Below, piece after piece: positions 996 to 32,118 of a DNA stretch of 64,000 nucleotides. The position numbers and the translations under genes were made by a program. This stretch comes from a virus. The DNA is taken from IMG/VR virus record IMGVR_UViG_3300042337_000070, positions 32,001 to 96,000 of that record; one strand, 5' to 3'. Under the pieces are notes generated by a model. That model was given only the letters and a program-made list of their open reading frames with translations. It had not been told where the DNA came from and did not search any database. Each line of letters opens with the position of its first letter. Positions within the stretch are counted from its first letter, which is position 1.

Positions 996-1544
996 TTATT
1001 TAGGTGACATACTATCTGCGATCTTCTGTGCCATTGAACCCCAGTTCTTAGCACTTTCGTTCAATAGTTGCTTTGTCGTTTCCTGAACACCAAATGGATC
1101 TAAGATATCAATCTTCTTAGTTTTCTTCTCCTCAGGAACAAAGCGTTCAAGGAAGATTTTGAGCATACCGTTGGCGAGTTCAGCATTCTTCACTTCCACT
1201 GTATCTGCAATGGTGAACTTCCGAGTGAATGCTCGATTGGCAATACCCTTATGAAGGTAGTCGCCTTCTTCGGTTTCGGTACTGCCTGTGATTGTTAGAA
1301 CATCGCTCTTTAGTTCAATATCAAGATTATGCTTGCCGAAACCAGCAACAGCCATCTCGATCACATAATGTTCATCATCAATCTTCTTTACATTGTAAGG
1401 AGGGTATGCTGGAATCTTTGGTAGGTAATCATTTGCTTCTGCGATGCGTTGGAGCACCTGTTCAAATCCAATAGCACCCTTTGAGATATCATTAGCAAAG
1501 GTGAATGGATCAAACCAGAACTTATCTGTATTCTTGTTAGTCAT
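996..1544 (-). CDS. hsp20: Small heat shock protein (Hsp20/IbpA-like)
   Basis: YPPYNV, IEMAVAGF, YLHKGIANRAF, ANGML and IDI motifs; start moved to MTNKN (1544) after SD AGGAG. Confidence 0.93.
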   Translation of the reverse strand: MTNKNTDKFWFDPFTFANDISKGAIGFEQVLQRIAEANDYLPKIPAYPPYNVKKIDDEHYVIEMAVAGFGKHNLDIELKSDVLTITGSTETEEGDYLHKGIANRAFTRKFTIADTVEVKNAELANGMLKIFLERFVPEEKKTKKIDILDPFGVQETTKQLLNESAKNWGSMAQKIADSMSPK

Positions 1545-1604
1545 ATGTTTTCTCCTATAGTTAGCGAGAAGTAAAGAGAATGGTACCGTCGTGGCACCAT
1601 TCTC
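1542..1604 (-). promoter_or_regulatory. ROSE-like RNA thermometer in the hsp20 5' UTR
   Basis: 5' hairpin GAGAAUGGUGCC/GGUACCAUUCUC, then UUCUC-G-CU pairing with SD AGGAGAA leaving a bulged G (U(U/C)GCU ROSE signature). Confidence 0.75.
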
Positions 1605-1608
1605 AAAC

Positions 1609-1638
1609 ATTATATAGTAAACTTCACAGGTTTGTCAA
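1609..1638 (-). promoter_or_regulatory. Sigma70-type promoter for hsp20
   Basis: TTGACA-18bp-TATAAT. Confidence 0.7.
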
Positions 1639-18035: not shown

Positions 18036-19295
18036 TCAGAAAGCGATCTCTTCTCCAACAACCTTCTGCTCTTCGGTAGCAGGAGCGACAGTCGGATCGA
18101 TTGTTTCGTCAACCTTCTTATACAGTTCCATAAAAGCGTTCTTAGTATCGATATCAAAGCGATTCAGACACAGCTCAATCGACTTGGCACGATTCTGATT
18201 GAAAATGGCATATGCCTCGCAGATATGAACCAGACGACGAGTGGAGATGATTTCGGACAAAGCACCTTCATAAAAGGACTTGCGAATAACATCAGCCCAG
18301 GTCACCAGCTTATCAACAAAGTCACCAGCATCAATACCAGAAGCACCGAGAACATTCTTTAGAATCTTAGTCTCGGTCTTGACCGGCGGATACTCCTGCT
18401 CCATTGTAATAGAGAAACGCTCCAGAAAGGCTTCGTTCATAACATTGGTGCCGATGAAGCGACCGTCGTCAGAACCCTTACCCTTAGTGTTAGCGGTCGC
18501 AATGACATTGAAACCAGACTCAGGAGTAACCAGTCGATTGATCTTTTTGAGAAACACCGACTTGCCCTCAAGGACAGGCTGCAAACACATCAGCTTGTTA
18601 GAACCGAGGTCAACCTCGTCAAGCAGAAGAATTGCACCACGCTGCATAGCGATAATAACAGGACCGTCCTGCCAGACAGTATGACCATCAACAAGGCGGA
18701 AACCACCGATCAAATCGTCTTCGTCAGTCTCAATAGTAACATTGACACGAACACACTCACGCTTTTCCGCAGCGCAAACCTGTTCAATCATCATCGTCTT
18801 ACCGTTACCAGAAAGACCAGTGATATAAGCCGGATAAAACTTCTTGGACTTGATAATAGCACGAACGTCGGCAAAGTTACCGAACGGAACGTAGCCAGAA
18901 GCCTTAGAAGGAACCAGCGACACTTCACTTGAAGTAGAAGTGGAAGGAGCAGACATAGCAACGGTCGGAGCCATAGCCACTACGCTATCGACAACAGGAA
19001 TATCCGACTGAATATTCGCAGGAGCGACCTTATTGGTAGCAGTCTTCTTAGGAGCCTTGACCTTAGTGACAGCGGGTGCCATAGCAACATTAACGGCAGC
19101 ACCATGCTCGGGAATAGCATACAGACCACGACCCACACGGCGGGAAGCGTCGTTCAAGAACCAGTGAGGCCAGGACAAATTATATTTTTCGACAACACTC
19201 TTGATTTGGGCACGGGACACTTCACGGACAGCACCAAATTCAAAACGCACCTTGTCAAGGAACTCGGTGCGGTTAACGGAAGAAGACTTAGCCAT
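18036..19295 (-). CDS. cobS: CobS-like MoxR AAA+ ATPase
   Basis: GLSGNGKT Walker A, LLLDEVD Walker B, TANTKGKGSDDGRFIGTNVMNEAFLERF. Confidence 0.92.
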   Translation of the reverse strand: MAKSSSVNRTEFLDKVRFEFGAVREVSRAQIKSVVEKYNLSWPHWFLNDASRRVGRGLYAIPEHGAAVNVAMAPAVTKVKAPKKTATNKVAPANIQSDIPVVDSVVAMAPTVAMSAPSTSTSSEVSLVPSKASGYVPFGNFADVRAIIKSKKFYPAYITGLSGNGKTMMIEQVCAAEKRECVRVNVTIETDEDDLIGGFRLVDGHTVWQDGPVIIAMQRGAILLLDEVDLGSNKLMCLQPVLEGKSVFLKKINRLVTPESGFNVIATANTKGKGSDDGRFIGTNVMNEAFLERFSITMEQEYPPVKTETKILKNVLGASGIDAGDFVDKLVTWADVIRKSFYEGALSEIISTRRLVHICEAYAIFNQNRAKSIELCLNRFDIDTKNAFMELYKKVDETIDPTVAPATEEQKVVGEEIAF

Positions 19296-19331
19296 ACGAT
19301 GTTTTCCTTTCACGATTTCAAATTATGACAT

Positions 19332-19369
19332 ATTATAGCAGAGGAAACGGGGGTTGTCAAGACCCCCGT
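19332..19369 (-). promoter_or_regulatory. Sigma70 promoter whose -35 box sits inside a hairpin
   Basis: TTGACA-17bp-TATAAT; ACGGGGG...CCCCCGT inverted repeat flanks the -35 box. Confidence 0.75.
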
Positions 19370-19384
19370 AACCTATTGTTTTTT

Positions 19385-21616
19385 CTACGCTACCTTCTTT
19401 GCTTTCCCAGTGACGTGGTCAATGAAATTGCGAAGAAGGACACGGTTGACAGCCTTTCTAGCGGCGAACTTGGAGAACGCTTTGGCCATATGCTTGGTAG
19501 ACTTGTTGGTATCGATTTCCAGATTATTATCTTCGAATCTAAGAGCCCTAGAATCGATCACATAATAATCATCGTATCCTTCACTCTTGACAGGATAGAA
19601 CTTGTTCTCCTTCCAGAACTTGGAGACCTTCTGGAGATAATCATAGTTGCCTTCAACACCAAAACGACGGGTGAAAGTTCCCCAAGATTCAGCGAAAAGA
19701 AAGAAACCGATTAGATTACAGTTCGTCTTCTCCTTGAGCAAACGAAGATACTGGACAGTGTTGGTAGCACGATTAGACGGACCCCAACCACGAGGATCGA
19801 TCTCATAAGTTTTACCAGTCTCCTTGTCATTGTAATAAAACTGCTTTTTACGAAGCGAATTTTTCGTCGTATCATGCACAAGACCAGAACAAACATTCGA
19901 CTCACCGTCAGTGAGAATAATGGTATTGACAACCTCCAGCTTATACTTTGCACGGAAATCATTGATGATCTTAGGTGCAACATAAATTGCCTCATTCAAA
20001 GGCGTGCCAGAGAGACCTTCACAGTTGAGACGATGACCATTACCCATAGCCCAGAGAAAAGCCATAGCGTCATTCAATTCAGTAAGATTCATCTTAGATG
20101 AAAGGAACTGACGCATAGTGAGATAACCAAATGCCATGCTATTTTCGACACTGCTGTGATCCCACGGAGACTTAGGATCATAATCATCGTCGGAATCCTT
20201 GAACGCATACACTTCAAACGGCACTTGAATCTGCTTGCAGAAGAGAACCAGAGTAAAGAGCTGCGACATGGTGTGTCGAAGATTATAGTCCATTGATCCT
20301 GACCAATCAAGAAACATGACAAAGCCATGGTTCTTACCCTCAGGGATAACAGACAGACGACGGAAGATATCATCGCTGTGCTTATAAGCATGGAGTTTGT
20401 TGGTATCGATCATACCAGTCTTAGCAGTTTGAATGCGAGAATAAATCTCGGCACTCTTACGCTGCTCAAACTCCTTGACGAGGAAAGAGATAGTCTCCTT
20501 TTCTTTCTGACGCCATTCGGTAAACTCACGACGGGCGTTTTCGAAAACCTCAACAGTCAGGCTGCGACTATAACGAGGATTAACATTCGTTATTTCTTTA
20601 CGCCAGTCATTCAGGACTCTTTTATAATCATGGACATGCTTGGCATAATTGAACTGAGGCATATTGACATAAACATAATCAACATTGGCATTCTGCACCA
20701 GTTCTTCACGCTTTTCTTCCCAAGCACGATCGGTCTGTGACTCGGGAACATTGTCCGTTACCTTACCCTGGGCACCAGCGCCAGAGCCAGACGAATTACC
20801 ATTTGAACCAAGATCACCCTGACCACGGGTTACACCACCCTCCGAATCGTCGTCGTTACCCTCGCCTTCACCCTCATCGGAGTCGGACTTGGAACCTTCA
20901 TTAGAATCGAAATCATCGGCAGAGTCGCCATCGCTATCCCAATCAAAACCATCATCACCTTCACCCTCCTCAGAATCACCGACACCAATATCGATATGCA
21001 TATCATTTTCAATCTGAGACTTGCAGAAACGATAAATCTGTTCGACAACATCGACAGTTTCATCGAACTTTTCAAGATTCTCAACCTTTTTGAGAAAGGA
21101 CCGCTCTTCGGGAGTAAACTCAATAGATAGATTGACATTACCGCCCTTGAAATAGATATTCAAGCGGTCGATGAAATTCATCGAATTGATATCACGACCC
21201 TTCGTGCCGAAAAAGTCACGTTCAATCAATTCCTGATAACCAAGAAGATAGTTTTTACGAAGACCAGGATAACGGCGCTTCTGGCGCTTATCGATACGGG
21301 CATCTTCGATAACATTCAAAAAGCCAGCGACGGTTCGCATAAGACGAGAATCAACATCGTCACCAAAGATACGCTTCGCAATACCCTGATAAGCAGTCTT
21401 ATACTCTTCGGCAGAAGGAGTATCGATAGCATGACCAGTCTCATGACCGATAAGCAAATGCTCCAGATCAGTAGAGATGTTCTGCCATACGGGAAGCATG
21501 AGAACACGATTCTTTAGGTCGAACATAGCGGTCTTGATACCAGACTGGTGCTGAACCGTAATGTTTTCAGTAGCAAGCAGTTTAGCAAGCAGAGAATTAG
21601 AGTTTACCGTTTGCAT
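19385..21616 (-). CDS. CobT-like protein: N-terminal zincin (HETGH), acidic linker, vWA domain
   Basis: LAKLLATENITV, GHETGH, EDARI, DWSGSM MIDAS, LTDGE. Confidence 0.85.
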   Translation of the reverse strand: MQTVNSNSLLAKLLATENITVQHQSGIKTAMFDLKNRVLMLPVWQNISTDLEHLLIGHETGHAIDTPSAEEYKTAYQGIAKRIFGDDVDSRLMRTVAGFLNVIEDARIDKRQKRRYPGLRKNYLLGYQELIERDFFGTKGRDINSMNFIDRLNIYFKGGNVNLSIEFTPEERSFLKKVENLEKFDETVDVVEQIYRFCKSQIENDMHIDIGVGDSEEGEGDDGFDWDSDGDSADDFDSNEGSKSDSDEGEGEGNDDDSEGGVTRGQGDLGSNGNSSGSGAGAQGKVTDNVPESQTDRAWEEKREELVQNANVDYVYVNMPQFNYAKHVHDYKRVLNDWRKEITNVNPRYSRSLTVEVFENARREFTEWRQKEKETISFLVKEFEQRKSAEIYSRIQTAKTGMIDTNKLHAYKHSDDIFRRLSVIPEGKNHGFVMFLDWSGSMDYNLRHTMSQLFTLVLFCKQIQVPFEVYAFKDSDDDYDPKSPWDHSSVENSMAFGYLTMRQFLSSKMNLTELNDAMAFLWAMGNGHRLNCEGLSGTPLNEAIYVAPKIINDFRAKYKLEVVNTIILTDGESNVCSGLVHDTTKNSLRKKQFYYNDKETGKTYEIDPRGWGPSNRATNTVQYLRLLKEKTNCNLIGFFLFAESWGTFTRRFGVEGNYDYLQKVSKFWKENKFYPVKSEGYDDYYVIDSRALRFEDNNLEIDTNKSTKHMAKAFSKFAARKAVNRVLLRNFIDHVTGKAKKVA

Positions 21617-26511: not shown

Positions 26512-28233
26512 TCATTCATCTTTTGTCAAGACAGAAAAGTTTTTTACCTTTTCAAACTTAAGGATTCTTTGAAAACGATCTAACATGGTATCCTTGTGAG
26601 AGATAACGAAGATATTGGTTCCTTTGTCTCCCATCTCCCACATAATTTTAATGAACTCGTCAATACCAGTTGTATCCATTGCTCTATCCAAGATTTCATC
26701 AAACACTAAGATGTTGACGTTTACCGAGTTTTTAAGTTTAGCAATCTGACGCCATGTTAGGAGAATCGCAAGGTCAATTCGCAGTTTCTCGCCTTCACTG
26801 AAATTGTGGTAACTAAACTCGTCTCTGTAACGTGACTTGATACTTTCCTCGAAAGATTCGTTGATATTGAAATTGACGAAGAAACCAAGTTTCGCCAGAT
26901 ACTTGTTAATGTGCTTGTTGATAATAGGAAGATACTGCTTGATGATCTTCGTTTTAATGCCACCGTCTTTAAGGAGTGTGCTGGCCAGGTCGATGTATTG
27001 ACGCTCATCTAAAAAGGTCTTCTTCTCTTCTTCGAGGGTGGAAAGATCATGTTCGACCTCGGAGAGTTGTCGTTCTGACTCTTGGATAGTTTTGTCTGAT
27101 GTTGCGAAGTTTTCAATCTGCTCCACAACTTGTGAAAGATTATGACGCAGATTGTTATAGGAAGACTTAGAAGACGAAACTTCCAACCGAAGTTTGTTGA
27201 TTTGGACGACGATTTTTTCAATGGCATCAATCTCTAATAAGACAGAATCAATTTGTTGTTCAACCTTATTTAGTCCTTCACTAAGTTCATGAATTTTAGC
27301 ATGACCATCATCAACCATGCTCTTAGCAAACTCTGGGTTGATTTCTTGACGACAGGTTGGACAATTACCACTTTCCGCAAAGAAGTCAATATCTTTAACA
27401 TGCTTGTCACGATTGGCTTCCATCTTAGCACGAAAACCTAGTAGTTTTGAATGCTTGGACTTTAGAGGTGACAAATCGATGTTCTGATCTAACACAGTTT
27501 CGAGAGCGGATTCATGTTGTAGAACGATGCTCTTTTGTGTGTTTAGTTGATCTAATAAAGATGCTTCCTTACTTTTCAATTCAGCCAACTTCTCTTCGCT
27601 ATTTGCTCTAAGAGAGGCAAGCGTTCTTTCAATGTAAGACTTATTGTCAACCTTACTAGAAAGTTGAACACGATTACGTTCCAAGTTCTCACGATTGACC
27701 TGTAGTTTGTTTTTTACAACAGTTGACATAGCAGTGAAGATTTGAATGTCCAACAAATCTTCAATCACAGATCGTCTATCGTTTGCAGATAGCTGCATGA
27801 ATGGAACAAACGATGCTGAACCAAGAATGACAACCTGCGTAAAAGATTTGTAGTTCATACGAAGAATGTTCTTCTCCAAATGCTCTTGATAATCTTTAGC
27901 CGCAGCATCTTGATTGATCATAACACCATCGATATAGATTTGAAAGACATTAGGCTTGACACCACGAATGACTTTATATCGATGGTTGTTAATGGTAAAC
28001 TCTATTTCGGTCACACAGTTCTTACCGTTAATTGAGTTAACTACGTTACCTTTGTTCACCTTACGAAATGGCTTACCAAAAAGCACAAAGCACAGGGCGT
28101 CAAGCACTGTTGACTTCCCTGCGCCGTTGTGACCCATAATCAACGTGTTCTTATGGGAGTCTAGTTCAATTTCAGTAAACACATTTCCAGATGATAGGAA
28201 GTTTTTATATCTTATCACATGGAATGTAATCAT
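26512..28233 (-). CDS. gp46: Recombination endonuclease ATPase subunit gp46 (Rad50/SbcC-like)
   Basis: GHNGAGKST, CPTC hook, FSEGEK signature, LVFDE, ISH. Confidence 0.97.
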   Translation of the reverse strand: MITFHVIRYKNFLSSGNVFTEIELDSHKNTLIMGHNGAGKSTVLDALCFVLFGKPFRKVNKGNVVNSINGKNCVTEIEFTINNHRYKVIRGVKPNVFQIYIDGVMINQDAAAKDYQEHLEKNILRMNYKSFTQVVILGSASFVPFMQLSANDRRSVIEDLLDIQIFTAMSTVVKNKLQVNRENLERNRVQLSSKVDNKSYIERTLASLRANSEEKLAELKSKEASLLDQLNTQKSIVLQHESALETVLDQNIDLSPLKSKHSKLLGFRAKMEANRDKHVKDIDFFAESGNCPTCRQEINPEFAKSMVDDGHAKIHELSEGLNKVEQQIDSVLLEIDAIEKIVVQINKLRLEVSSSKSSYNNLRHNLSQVVEQIENFATSDKTIQESERQLSEVEHDLSTLEEEKKTFLDERQYIDLASTLLKDGGIKTKIIKQYLPIINKHINKYLAKLGFFVNFNINESFEESIKSRYRDEFSYHNFSEGEKLRIDLAILLTWRQIAKLKNSVNVNILVFDEILDRAMDTTGIDEFIKIMWEMGDKGTNIFVISHKDTMLDRFQRILKFEKVKNFSVLTKDE

Positions 28234-28234
28234 A

Positions 28235-30022
28235 TCAATATTCTCTTGTTGGCTTCTTCCCTACTAATAGATCCTTGATTTCTTGACCTGTTAGAGTTTC
28301 ATATTCTAGCAGACCTTGTGCTAGTGTGTCAAGGTCTTTTCTCTTTTCGGTTAGAATCTTCTTTGCCATGGTATATCCTTCCTCGACGAGGCGCTTGATT
28401 TCCATATCGACAATCTTTTGTGTCTCTTCGGCAATCTTAGCAGAATGAAATACATCAGCATTTGGTTCTGTATAAGCCATACGTCCTAGAAGTGGTGAGA
28501 AACCTAGCTGAGTAACCATTGCTCTTGCGAGTTTAGTTGCTTGCTGAATATCTCCTGCGGCGCCAGATGTAACTCTATGTTCACCAAAAATGATTTCTTC
28601 TGCTACACGTCCACCCATAGCCATAGCAAGTTGAGCAATCATTTCTTCGTAAGACTGTGAGATTTGGTCACGATCTGGAATTGATTGAACCATACCCAAT
28701 GCTCGTCCACGTGGTATGATAGTTGCCTTATGAATTGGGATCGAGCCAGTCATGTTGATAGAAACGAGAGCATGACCACCTTCATGATATGCTGTCATCT
28801 TCTTTTCATCATCAGTCATAAGAAGCGTTCTGTGTTCGGCGCCCATCATGATCTTATCACGGGCATCTTCAAATTCTTGAAGTGTAACAATCCGCTTTGA
28901 ACGGCGAGCGGCAAGCAATGCTGCCTCATTAACAAGATTTGCTAGATCGGCGCCAGAAAAGCCAGGTGTTCCCTTTGCGACAGTTCTAATATCAACATCA
29001 GGTCCAATTGGAACTTTGCGTGTGTGAACTTTTAGAATCTTCTCACGACCAACAAAGTCTGGATTAGGAACTTGAACCTGTCTATCGAAACGACCTGGAC
29101 GAGTTAGGGCTTTATCTAGAACATCTACACGATTGGTAGCAGCAATGACGATAACACCTTCGTTATCATTGAATCCGTCCATTTCTACTAGCATTGCGTT
29201 TAGAGTTTGATCACGTTCGTCATTACCACCCATACCTGTAGCTCTTGATCGACCAACGGCGTCAATCTCATCAATGAAGACAATGCAAGGTGCATTCTTC
29301 TTTGCTTGATCAAACATATCTCTAACTCTAGATGCACCAACACCAACAAACATTTCTACGAAGTCTGATCCAGAAATACTAAAGAAAGGAACACCTGCTT
29401 CACCAGCAACTGCCCTAGCTAGAAGAGTTTTACCTGTGCCAGGAGGACCAACGAGCAATACACCCTTTGGAATTTTACCACCAAGACGTTCAAACTTTTG
29501 TGGATTTTGTAAAAACTCTACAACTTCCTGCAAGTCTTCTTTTGCTTGATCAACACCAGCAACATCTTCAAATGTCTTTAGTGTAGAAGACTCAGTAAGC
29601 AGTTTTGCTTTTGACTTACCCATACCCATCATTCCACCAGGACCACCGGCCGAACGGCGAGATAGCCACACCCATAGACCAAAGAATAGAAATACTGGTA
29701 GAAGATTAATAAGTAGATTTGTCCAGAATGATGCTTCTGTGTTATCAGCCTTAACAGTAATATTAACCTTGTGTTCTTCTAACTTAGGTAGAAGAGAAGA
29801 AAGGCCAGCAACGGTAGTTCTAAACTCTCTGTTGTCTGCGTTAAAGTGTCCTGTTAGCTGATTTCCTGCTACATAAACATCATGAACGTTGTTGCGTTCA
29901 ACCTGACCGAGAAAGTCGGAATAACTAATTTCATTTGTTAGTTTGTGTTCGCCTGGCATAGCCATCCAATACAGGGCTACGGCCACAGCGAAAAAGATTA
30001 TAATAGGTAACGTTTTCTTCAT
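28235..30022 (-). CDS. ftsH: ATP-dependent zinc metalloprotease FtsH
   Basis: Two TM helices, [11 protein letters not shown] pore loop, IDEID, RPGRFDR, HEGGH, AEE, GAAGD. Confidence 0.97.
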
Positions 30023-30033
30023 AATACAGATCC

Positions 30034-31110
30034 TTATACTGTTTCAACTTGAAGGGCTTCATTATACACATCGATCATGAATTTTTTCATCTTAGCATTT
30101 TCTAATGGCAATGTCAACCCATCAATATACTTTTTAAGAATGGTAACGGTATCTTCCGCTTCATCAATTTCCGAATCTTCCTCATTGTCTATCATGATGG
30201 TCGGATCTTCGACTATCTGAATATCTAAAGGTCCTGTTTTGTAAATTGAATCGAAAAGAAGATCGAAAGCATAAGGGTTGCTTTTGTTTATGACAACAAT
30301 TTTTACATAGCAATTTTTATACTTACTGAAATCCGTTTGTTGAATCTTCTCTACAATGTTAGGGTTAGCAACATCATCATACTTTGCTATCTTAAACATT
30401 TTAGATGGATTCTGAATAAACTCTAGTCTTCTATTTTCAGTATCCAGGACACTAAACCCTCTAGGGTCTCCATAATCGTGCCAAGTATATTCACCAAGGG
30501 CGCCAATATAAGTGATATTACCAATTGTAGAACGATGGTGATAGTGGCCAGAATAAACAGCCTCAAAATTTTCAAAAAGTTTACGATCAAGTCCATGGTC
30601 TGATATCAATCCTCTATGCATTGTAAAACCGTTCAATTCAAGATGTCCCATGCAAATAGGTGCTTTAGGATTCTTGATTGCTTCATAGGCTTCCTGACGA
30701 TTAGAGTCAGTGATCCAAGGCATTAGTTGGATATCAAGCCCATCAATATTGATAAGAGTAGGTGTGCTATAAGTTCTAATGTGCTTATAACGCCCCACGA
30801 TAATCTCGTCTAGGGCGTTGACCTCGTGGGTGTCTTTATAATAAGAATCATGATTTCCTTGAATGATGTGAGTTTCAACACCTCGTCTCTCCAATGGTTC
30901 AAGGAAATCTTCCCGAAGTCGTTTGGCAGACATGAAGTTGATATACTTGCGGCGGTCATAGATATCACCAAGATGAATAACATTCTTGATATTGTTAGCA
31001 TCAATGTAATCAATGAACCATTGCCAACACTTCTTTTGATACTGCTGAAATGCAGGATTGTCATTCCTAACACCAGCATGTGTATCTGTAGGCATTGCGA
31101 TCAGCGCCAT
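30034..31110 (-). CDS. gp47: Recombination endonuclease nuclease subunit gp47 (Mre11/SbcD-like)
   Basis: TDTH, HLGD, GNHD, GHLE, SGHYH. Confidence 0.96.
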
Positions 31111-31356: not shown

Positions 31357-31568
31357 TATCGTTTACCTTTTGGAAAGTGTAACCTTGGTGGAGCATCACC
31401 CATTTCTCTATCATAGTCGATAAGTGCTTCATCAATAACTTGCTTGATACTTGCTAGCCTCCTACGATAGTTACCACGAATATGAACTCTTTCTTGCTTG
31501 TTCTTCAATGTTTCAATCAATGTTTGAACCTGAAATGGTACCTCAAATTGATTCTGTTCCTTGCTCAT
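31356..31568 (-). CDS. Hypothetical protein
   Basis: Start MSKEQN overlaps the end of gp55. Confidence 0.6.
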   Translation of the reverse strand: MSKEQNQFEVPFQVQTLIETLKNKQERVHIRGNYRRRLASIKQVIDEALIDYDREMGDAPPRLHFPKGKR

Positions 31569-32118
31569 CTTCATTCTCCACGAATTTTTCAAGTCCTTCT
31601 TTCGCCTGCTTACGCTTCTCTTTTTTAAGACGTTCTTTGTTCTCAAAGTTCTTAATGAACTCATTCAAGTTATCATACATAGTAGACGTAATCATATGAT
31701 TGTCGTCACCATCTACCATAAGAGAAGCATCAGCGGTATCTAGAACAGACTCTTGAAACTTTTTATACATTATATAGCGATTCTTTTCTTCCTTAGCAAT
31801 ACGTCTATGGAAAGCAAAGTTTGTGATTTGAGTGAAGTATGCAAAGGGATTCTGACTGATGGCAGGGTTGAAATTATCAAAGTAAAGAAAACAGTTTTCT
31901 AGTGCATCCGACTTCATTTCGTCGATGAAAGAATAATTCATGAAGCGAGGCTTACGAGCGAGGTTCTCGGTGATAAGCCAAATACACTTACCACAATACT
32001 CGGAAACTCTAGGTTTCTCTCGTCCTTCAGAAGAAGCAATTTCAACTTTCTTTTTATATTCAACAATATCTTCTAAGAACTTCTTATTATCAACGTAGTG
32101 GTTTGCTTTCTTCGCCAT
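31543..32118 (-). CDS. gp55: Late transcription sigma factor gp55
   Basis: HYVDNKKFL, PRFMNYSFIDEM, NPFAYFTQI, RRIAKE. Confidence 0.95.
   Translation of the reverse strand: MAKKANHYVDNKKFLEDIVEYKKKVEIASSEGREKPRVSEYCGKCIWLITENLARKPRFMNYSFIDEMKSDALENCFLYFDNFNPAISQNPFAYFTQITNFAFHRRIAKEEKNRYIMYKKFQESVLDTADASLMVDGDDNHMITSTMYDNLNEFIKNFENKERLKKEKRKQAKEGLEKFVENEDEQGTESI

Follow-up and report, generated by a model that had tools for sequence, protein, structure and literature searches.

The window, a 64,000-nucleotide stretch of an IMG/VR record (107,942 bp, rated 65% complete), derives from a T4-like myovirus that encodes gp55, a helicase, gp23, gp22, gp20, gp18, gp17, CobS and a CobT-like protein. 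Its nearest cultured capsids are those of Pelagibacter phage Mosig (64%), Methylophilales phage Melnitz (62%) and cyanophages (~61%). On the minus strand, a gene for an FtsH-type membrane protease lies between gp47 and gp46 (Table 1), and an AGGA Shine-Dalgarno-like motif ahead of ftsH overlaps the gp47 stop codon.

Table 1. Features of the ftsH locus, of other genes in the same phage genome and of the pmoC-linked cluster in related contigs (coordinates without a prefix are positions in the window)
Feature	Coordinates	Strand	Remarks
ORF with Hsp20 domain	996..1610	-	domain at 1104-1385
CobS-like AAA protein and CobT-like 743-aa protein	18036-21616	-	phrog_249; phrog_459 ('peptidase')
gp46, SbcC/Rad50-like ATPase subunit	26512..28233	-	phrog_77; start 1 nt past ftsH stop
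ftsH CDS, full-length ATP-dependent zinc metalloprotease without C-terminal tail	28235..30022	-	595 aa; ORF and profile matches
Peptidase M41 domain	28268..28822	-	residues 401-585
Strong sigma-70-like promoter match within ftsH 3' end	28303-28332	-
Zinc site HEGGH	28772-28786		residues 413-417
AAA+ ATPase core (Pfam AAA)	29066..29461	-	residues 188-319
N-terminal module (TM1, periplasmic domain, TM2)	29657..30022	-	residues 1-122
Spacer, gp47 stop to ftsH start	30023..30033	-	11 nt
gp47, SbcD/Mre11-like nuclease subunit	30034..31110	-	phrog_100
Sigma-70-like promoter match within gp47 3' end	30089..30117	-	TTGACA-17-TAAGAT, TG-extended; weak evidence
gp55 late sigma factor	31543..32118	-	conserved T4-like synteny gp55-gp47-(ftsH)-gp46
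pmoC, same phage genome	G000:C1:22844-23572		PF04896, 362.6 bits
C-terminal acyl-CoA dehydrogenase fragment beside pmoC	L091:2823-3695		G000:C1, outside the window
Cluster pmoC, hsp20, M15 peptidase, ftsH in related contigs	L152:7902-11782; L004:3093-6998		M15 peptidase endolysin-like, phrog_17001

The original prediction described spacers of 11 nt to gp47 and 1 nt to gp46 and read them as the splitting of a normally close gene pair, and this reading holds. In cyanophage S-PRM1, the same order appears as gp55-gp47-(90-aa ORF)-gp46, with just the 90-aa ORF between gp47 and gp46; ftsH thus does sit where the two genes normally lie close together. The two promoter matches within the 3' ends of gp47 and ftsH could drive ftsH and gp46 separately; the former lies in coding sequence and its -35 hexamer is kept in the five nearest relatives only, for which reasons it is given no weight here.

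As had been noted from the sequence, the codons of ftsH are AT-rich and phage-like, with a GC3 of 0.284 as compared with a window mean of 0.339 +/- 0.061 (33 ORFs) and with 0.82-0.87 for host ftsH genes. The gp47-ftsH-gp46 order recurs in 14 other IMG/VR contigs, whose FtsH proteins are 75-84% identical to that of the window. A chimeric assembly at the junctions, which had been raised together with the initial description, or bacterial contamination of the locus therefore has a negligible chance of explaining the gene. Nothing was found in favour of contamination here, although several database 'phage' records with FtsH do look bacterial; the order shared with 14 contigs, the phage-like GC3 and the tight spacers on both sides speak against an artefact.

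Domain architecture and conservation of the phage FtsH

The window FtsH scores 802.4 bits against the TIGR01241 FtsH equivalog model (cut-off 600) and exceeds every Pfam cut-off for FtsH_ext, AAA, AAA_lid_3 and Peptidase_M41. Specifically, the FtsH_ext domain (PF06480) covers residues 7-91 with 38.8 bits (cut-off 25.5) and is flanked by two hydrophobic segments, at residues ~3-25 and ~98-122. The ATPase core contains Walker A (GPPGTGKT, residues 192-199), the aromatic FVG pore loop (MFVGVG, residues 224-229), Walker B (DEID, residues 251-254) and the second region of homology (TNR...RPGRFDR, residues 296-314) with the arginine fingers in RPGRFDR (residues 308-314). Downstream of the HEGGH zinc site, EEIIFG (residues 475-480) aligns with the AEEIIYG region of the E. 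coli protein, which contains the acidic ligand. Hence the description of a complete FtsH, with two TM helices, Walker A and B, the FVG loop, the second region of homology and HEGGH, is borne out in every element.

The alignment with E. coli FtsH (PDB 7vhp) extends over residues 7-588 with 52% identity (E 2e-194), and the phage protein has the full domain architecture and all catalytic motifs in common with this housekeeping FtsH/HflB (TIGR01241). Unlike bacterial FtsH/HflB, the window protein is phage-encoded and tail-less, and no HflK/HflC (Band_7) partner was found in the five phage genomes searched. The catalytic residues of Walker A and B, the pore loop, the arginine fingers and the zinc site do not vary among 16 phage FtsH proteins that are 70-88% identical to that of the window, and pairwise dN/dS among the phage ftsH copies ranges from 0.03 to 0.16. 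Taken together, these sequence data show that the phage gene encodes a complete, catalytically competent-looking FtsH, kept by purifying selection in an uncultured freshwater clade of T4-like phages.

Phage pmoC and distribution of ftsH among phages

The phage genome also carries a pmoC gene, 37 kb from ftsH (Table 1). This stand-alone pmoC, together with the T4-like gp23, gp20, gp18, gp17, gp22 and gp55 genes in the window, places the phage among the pmoC-phages of Chen et al. 2020 (PMC7674155). It is of the same kind as their alpha-type freshwater-lake phages, which are T4-like, measure ~160-175 kb when complete, share with it the stand-alone Methylocystis-type pmoC, Hsp20 and an acyl-CoA dehydrogenase fragment beside pmoC, and were predicted to have Methylocystis hosts. 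The fragment beside pmoC in the present genome comprises the C-terminal part of the enzyme (Table 1), and one was reported beside pmoC in phage LM_8 too (PMC7674155). Neither FtsH nor any protease is mentioned in that paper or its five supplementary files. The phage PmoC proteins form one clade within the Methylocystis pmoC1 type and are 87-90% identical to the host copies; because the orphan and operon copies are identical within a genome, the tree does not assign the phage PmoC to one or the other.

Across 5.8 billion proteins searched, the best 120 matches are all 69-88% identical to the window FtsH and nearly all 582-612 aa long, bar two fragments of ~520 aa, on contigs of up to 176 kb. 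IMG/VR holds 31 other contigs with an ftsH copy at least 67% identical to that of the window; FtsH proteins beyond these 31 contigs reach at most 56% identity and come from other viruses or bacterial DNA. Megablast of the locus against GenBank phages gave no match, and a convincing FtsH was seen among GenBank phages only in the Pseudomonas jumbo phages PA5oct and MIJ3. As far as it is described in the literature (Imam et al. 2019, cited in PMC7318152), this FtsH is host-like and full-length, belongs to a lytic myovirus and is transcribed during infection. It is 38% identical to the window FtsH and represents an independent acquisition from another host lineage; moreover, PA5oct and MIJ3 are jumbo phages whose ftsH has no link to a metabolic membrane enzyme, whereas the window phage is T4-like.

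In the literature searched, the PA5oct/MIJ3 protein is the only published phage FtsH, and ftsH in the present phage clade is not reported. The possibility that ftsH was already documented as a routine gene of these phages, which the original prediction had raised, thus stands in part: the gene is routine in the uncultured clade, given the 31 other IMG/VR contigs, but is described in no paper searched.

Some database records were set apart. The Microcystis phage MaAM05 record (MW495066.1, L205, 197320-206876) was considered as a precedent for a phage FtsH and rejected, since the ftsH neighbours glgX, proS and lepA indicate that this stretch is probably bacterial DNA, and small unannotated 'phage' records with FtsH (Listeria, Salmonella, Staphylococcus) are likewise bacterial-looking. 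A 259-kb 'viral' record, IMGVR_UViG_3300001580_000005 (L156, L284), encodes an FtsH and a PmoC that are 49% and 67% identical, respectively, to those of the window phage, and probably represents a piece of a methanotroph chromosome or a provirus, not a pmoC-phage.

Among near-complete alpha-type pmoC-phages, ftsH is present in three genomes (G050, G059 and G060) and absent from two (G061 and G063). In addition, a 169-kb genome with terminal repeats (G001) has ftsH and lacks pmoC, and ftsH is absent from all seven gamma-type pmoC-phage records checked, including one complete 372-kb genome. The gene is therefore an accessory of the Methylocystis-associated branch, and neither ftsH nor pmoC needs the other to be phage-borne.

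Cellular origin of the phage FtsH

The closest cellular FtsH proteins are those of Methylocystis (69-70% identity), Methylocapsa aurea (68%) and other Beijerinckiaceae, followed by Rhizobium at ~62%. Every cellular (Rhizobiales) FtsH examined carries a C-terminal tail of ~45 aa, which is Pro-rich and ends in GG-x-x-P-x-P. This tail is absent from the phage copies, which stop right after GKKPTREY. Maximum-likelihood analysis joins all 24 tail-less sequences in a single clade (SH-aLRT 100), sister to Methylocystis/Methylocapsa (SH-aLRT 99) and nested in Rhizobiales, and in a tree of the cytoplasmic part the phage clade falls inside the Methylocystis/Methylocapsa clade without a resolved position. 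These trees and the composition of the gene show a phage clade that arose once from the Methylocystis/Methylocapsa lineage and then lost the tail and shifted to phage codon usage. The earlier view of a Rhizobiales-like FtsH that lacks its C-terminal tail and was acquired and domesticated long ago is upheld by the phylogeny against hosts, GC3 and dN/dS; the missing tail measures ~45 aa, and the source is narrowed by the tree to Methylocystis/Methylocapsa.

A probable older arrangement of ftsH beside pmoC

In eight contigs, whose FtsH proteins are 67-73% identical to that of the window, ftsH belongs to a pmoC-hsp20-M15 peptidase-ftsH cluster (Table 1) with 1.3-2.8 kb between pmoC and ftsH, and the gp43 DNA polymerase gene directly follows ftsH in both of the two such contigs checked. 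When the phage FtsH tree is rooted with host sequences, the lineages with this cluster are early-branching and paraphyletic, and the 15 gp47-ftsH-gp46 sequences form one derived clade (SH-aLRT 100). The position between gp47 and gp46 is therefore best explained by a single later relocation out of the older, pmoC-linked arrangement.

This history bears on the 'proteostasis kit' into which the original prediction had grouped ftsH, Hsp20 and a MoxR/vWA pair. The latter is a CobS/CobT-like pair, the CobT-like gene of which has an equivalent position in the gene order of cyanophage S-PRM1, while for Hsp20 the literature reports core-gene status in cyanophages. Both are largely lineage-wide, which speaks against a dedicated kit, whereas the position of hsp20 between pmoC and ftsH in related phages retains a part of the idea.

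The pmoC-linked host paralog and the N-terminal module

In Methylocystis sp. SC2, a monocistronic pmoC adjoins an ftsH ('FtsH1'), an arrangement also present in strain Rockwell, and a role of the SC2 pair in pMMO quality control has been speculated on (Dam et al. 2013, PMC3794950). Of 41 Methylocystis species genomes, 16 have the two genes side by side, with ftsH preceding pmoC on one strand and gaps of ~250-530 bp, and one alphaproteobacterial MAG has the pair too. The form is reversed (pmoC-ftsH) in three of these 16 genomes, in part on probable plasmids, as well as in Methylocapsa aurea. On one contig of 121,432 bp (G032:C4), ftsH (89-1885) and pmoC (120519-121247) lie at opposite ends, which suggests a circular plasmid whose closing point is spanned by a pmoC-ftsH pair; this pair is also present on G028:C4 and C5.

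In the full-length tree, the phage clade joins the pmoC-linked FtsH of four Methylocystis genomes (SH-aLRT 95), apart from their housekeeping copies. The two host paralogs have 39 fixed differences, every one of them within residues 1-122, and in three of the four genomes (L095/L096, L097/L098 and L100/L101; G020, G037 and G028) the housekeeping and pmoC-linked copies have identical cytoplasmic domains, a mosaic that looks like gene conversion sparing the membrane/periplasmic module. Because these cytoplasmic domains are identical, the N-terminal and cytoplasmic parts of the protein carry contradictory signals, and the full-length AU test, in which a phage placement outside all core Methylocystis copies is not rejected (p = 0.51), is uninformative.

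In the N-terminal module, the split of phage and pmoC-linked copies from all others has a support of 97/97, and of 99/96 after removal of the long-branched reversed (PF) form. The rejection given by the corresponding AU test (p = 9e-5) is confounded, as housekeeping N-modules group with those of other genera regardless of the phage, and branch support is therefore relied on instead. In line with this split, 17 of 18 phage N-modules are nearer to the pmoC-linked type, with a mean identity of 43.5% as against 37.5% for the housekeeping type, and the phage modules share 10 states with the former and 3 with the latter. The earliest-branching phage N-module is 60% identical to the pmoC-linked type as against 40%, while the window's own module differs by a small margin (39.7% versus 36.8%). 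These comparisons suggest with moderate to good confidence a descent of the phage gene from the pmoC-linked paralog, a grade set by a signal that comes from ~120 residues.

Phage FtsH and Methylocystis FtsH1 (loci L093, L096, L097 and L101; PMC3794950) accordingly have the same type of N-terminal TM/periplasmic module, are ~76% identical in their cytoplasmic domains and are both linked to pmoC, the phage gene by sharing a genome with it or, in related phages, by lying no more than 2 kb away. They differ in that FtsH1 has the Pro-rich ~45-aa tail and a GC3 of ~0.86, whereas the phage protein is tail-less with a GC3 of 0.28. Additionally, FtsH1 directly adjoins the orphan pmoC, whereas the window ftsH sits between gp47 and gp46, 37 kb from pmoC, and in the phage cluster the order from pmoC to ftsH is the reverse of the host ftsH-pmoC order.

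Possible roles of the phage FtsH

We propose that the phage FtsH is an active, domesticated protease that serves the quality control or the turnover of pMMO subunits, a reading to which we give a probability of about 0.5. The gene would be expressed together with early replication and recombination genes, and its product would insert as a hexamer into host (intracytoplasmic) membranes, where it may extract and degrade pMMO subunits that are damaged, unassembled or of the host type, chiefly PmoC. Together with phage or host PmoC and Hsp20, this activity would keep methane oxidation, and hence the energy supply, running through infection. By analogy, the scheme resembles the FtsH-dependent D1 repair cycle fed by cyanophage psbA, in which the phage likewise carries a labile membrane subunit of a host energy-harvesting enzyme. 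D1 repair is driven by host FtsH, whereas the pmoC phage carries the protease too, PmoC turnover by FtsH being the hypothesised counterpart. Several observations weigh against the proposal: the window ftsH lies amid DNA recombination genes and far from pmoC, near-complete genomes have one gene without the other (ftsH in G001, pmoC in G061 and G063), the assignment to the pmoC-linked paralog draws on ~120 residues, and the linkage of pmoC and ftsH may reflect no more than a shared host source.

Since the membrane/periplasmic module is all that distinguishes the host paralogs, specificity for a substrate or partner should be sought there. A more far-reaching and distinctly more tentative form of the proposal is that the phage runs its own pMMO exchange-and-repair cycle, in which the N-module would steer FtsH to pMMO in intracytoplasmic membranes, damaged or host PmoC would be removed, and phage PmoC and Hsp20 would refill the complex. 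If so, this would be the first known case of a virus with both a replaceable subunit and the protease that clears it, and would provide the first handle on the function of the unexplained orphan pmoC-ftsH modules of methanotrophs.

The strongest rival to a role in pMMO turnover is general membrane and cytoplasmic proteostasis with no special tie to pMMO, in which the phage enzyme supplements host FtsH so that a slow-growing host survives a long infection, or breaks down general substrates such as the heat-shock sigma factor or LpxC-type regulators. Such a function has been proposed for the only published phage FtsH, that of MIJ3/PA5oct (PMC7318152), and it would suit both the window ftsH, which sits amid early DNA-metabolism genes, and the complete genome G001, which has ftsH without pmoC. 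We consider it possible but clearly less probable than a role in pMMO turnover, since the N-module that has been kept is that of the pmoC-linked paralog and not of the housekeeping type, ftsH is clustered with pmoC and hsp20 in the earlier-branching lineages, and the gene was seen in no phages other than the alpha-type pmoC-phage lineage and close relatives of it among those compared.

A function in lysis or envelope control, with FtsH degrading a holin, antiholin, spanin or regulator of envelope synthesis and thereby timing lysis, gains some appeal from the endolysin-like M15 peptidase immediately upstream of ftsH in the pmoC-hsp20-M15-ftsH architecture. This adjacency is lost across the whole clade of the window, however, no holin or regulator was identified, and the origin from a pmoC-linked paralog would be left unexplained, which makes lysis control unlikely. 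Even less probable is counter-defence, that is, removal of membrane-bound host defence effectors or their regulators: FtsH proteases can extract membrane proteins, and this general capacity of the family is all that speaks for it, whereas no defence or anti-defence genes were seen beside ftsH in either architecture and the origin from a neighbour of a metabolic gene points elsewhere. The suggestion in the original prediction that the phage copy poisons host FtsH hexamers as a dominant-negative subunit fares worst of these roles and appears very improbable. An identity of ~75% to host FtsH in the cytoplasmic domains could allow mixed hexamers, but every catalytic motif is invariant across the 16 diverged phage sequences under purifying selection (dN/dS 0.03-0.16), and a poison subunit would not need all of them.

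A large share of the methane that lakes and wetlands generate is consumed by methanotrophs, whose activity pmoC-carrying phages are thought to alter. An intact FtsH of the pmoC-linked type turns this notion into a concrete hypothesis of pMMO turnover, which rests on the retention of an intact FtsH in a Methylocystis-infecting branch, on its descent from a host type tied to pmoC and on the ancestral pmoC-hsp20-ftsH cluster. The hypothesis would cover not only infection but also uninfected methanotrophs, in which the orphan pmoC-ftsH pair has been unexplained since 2013.
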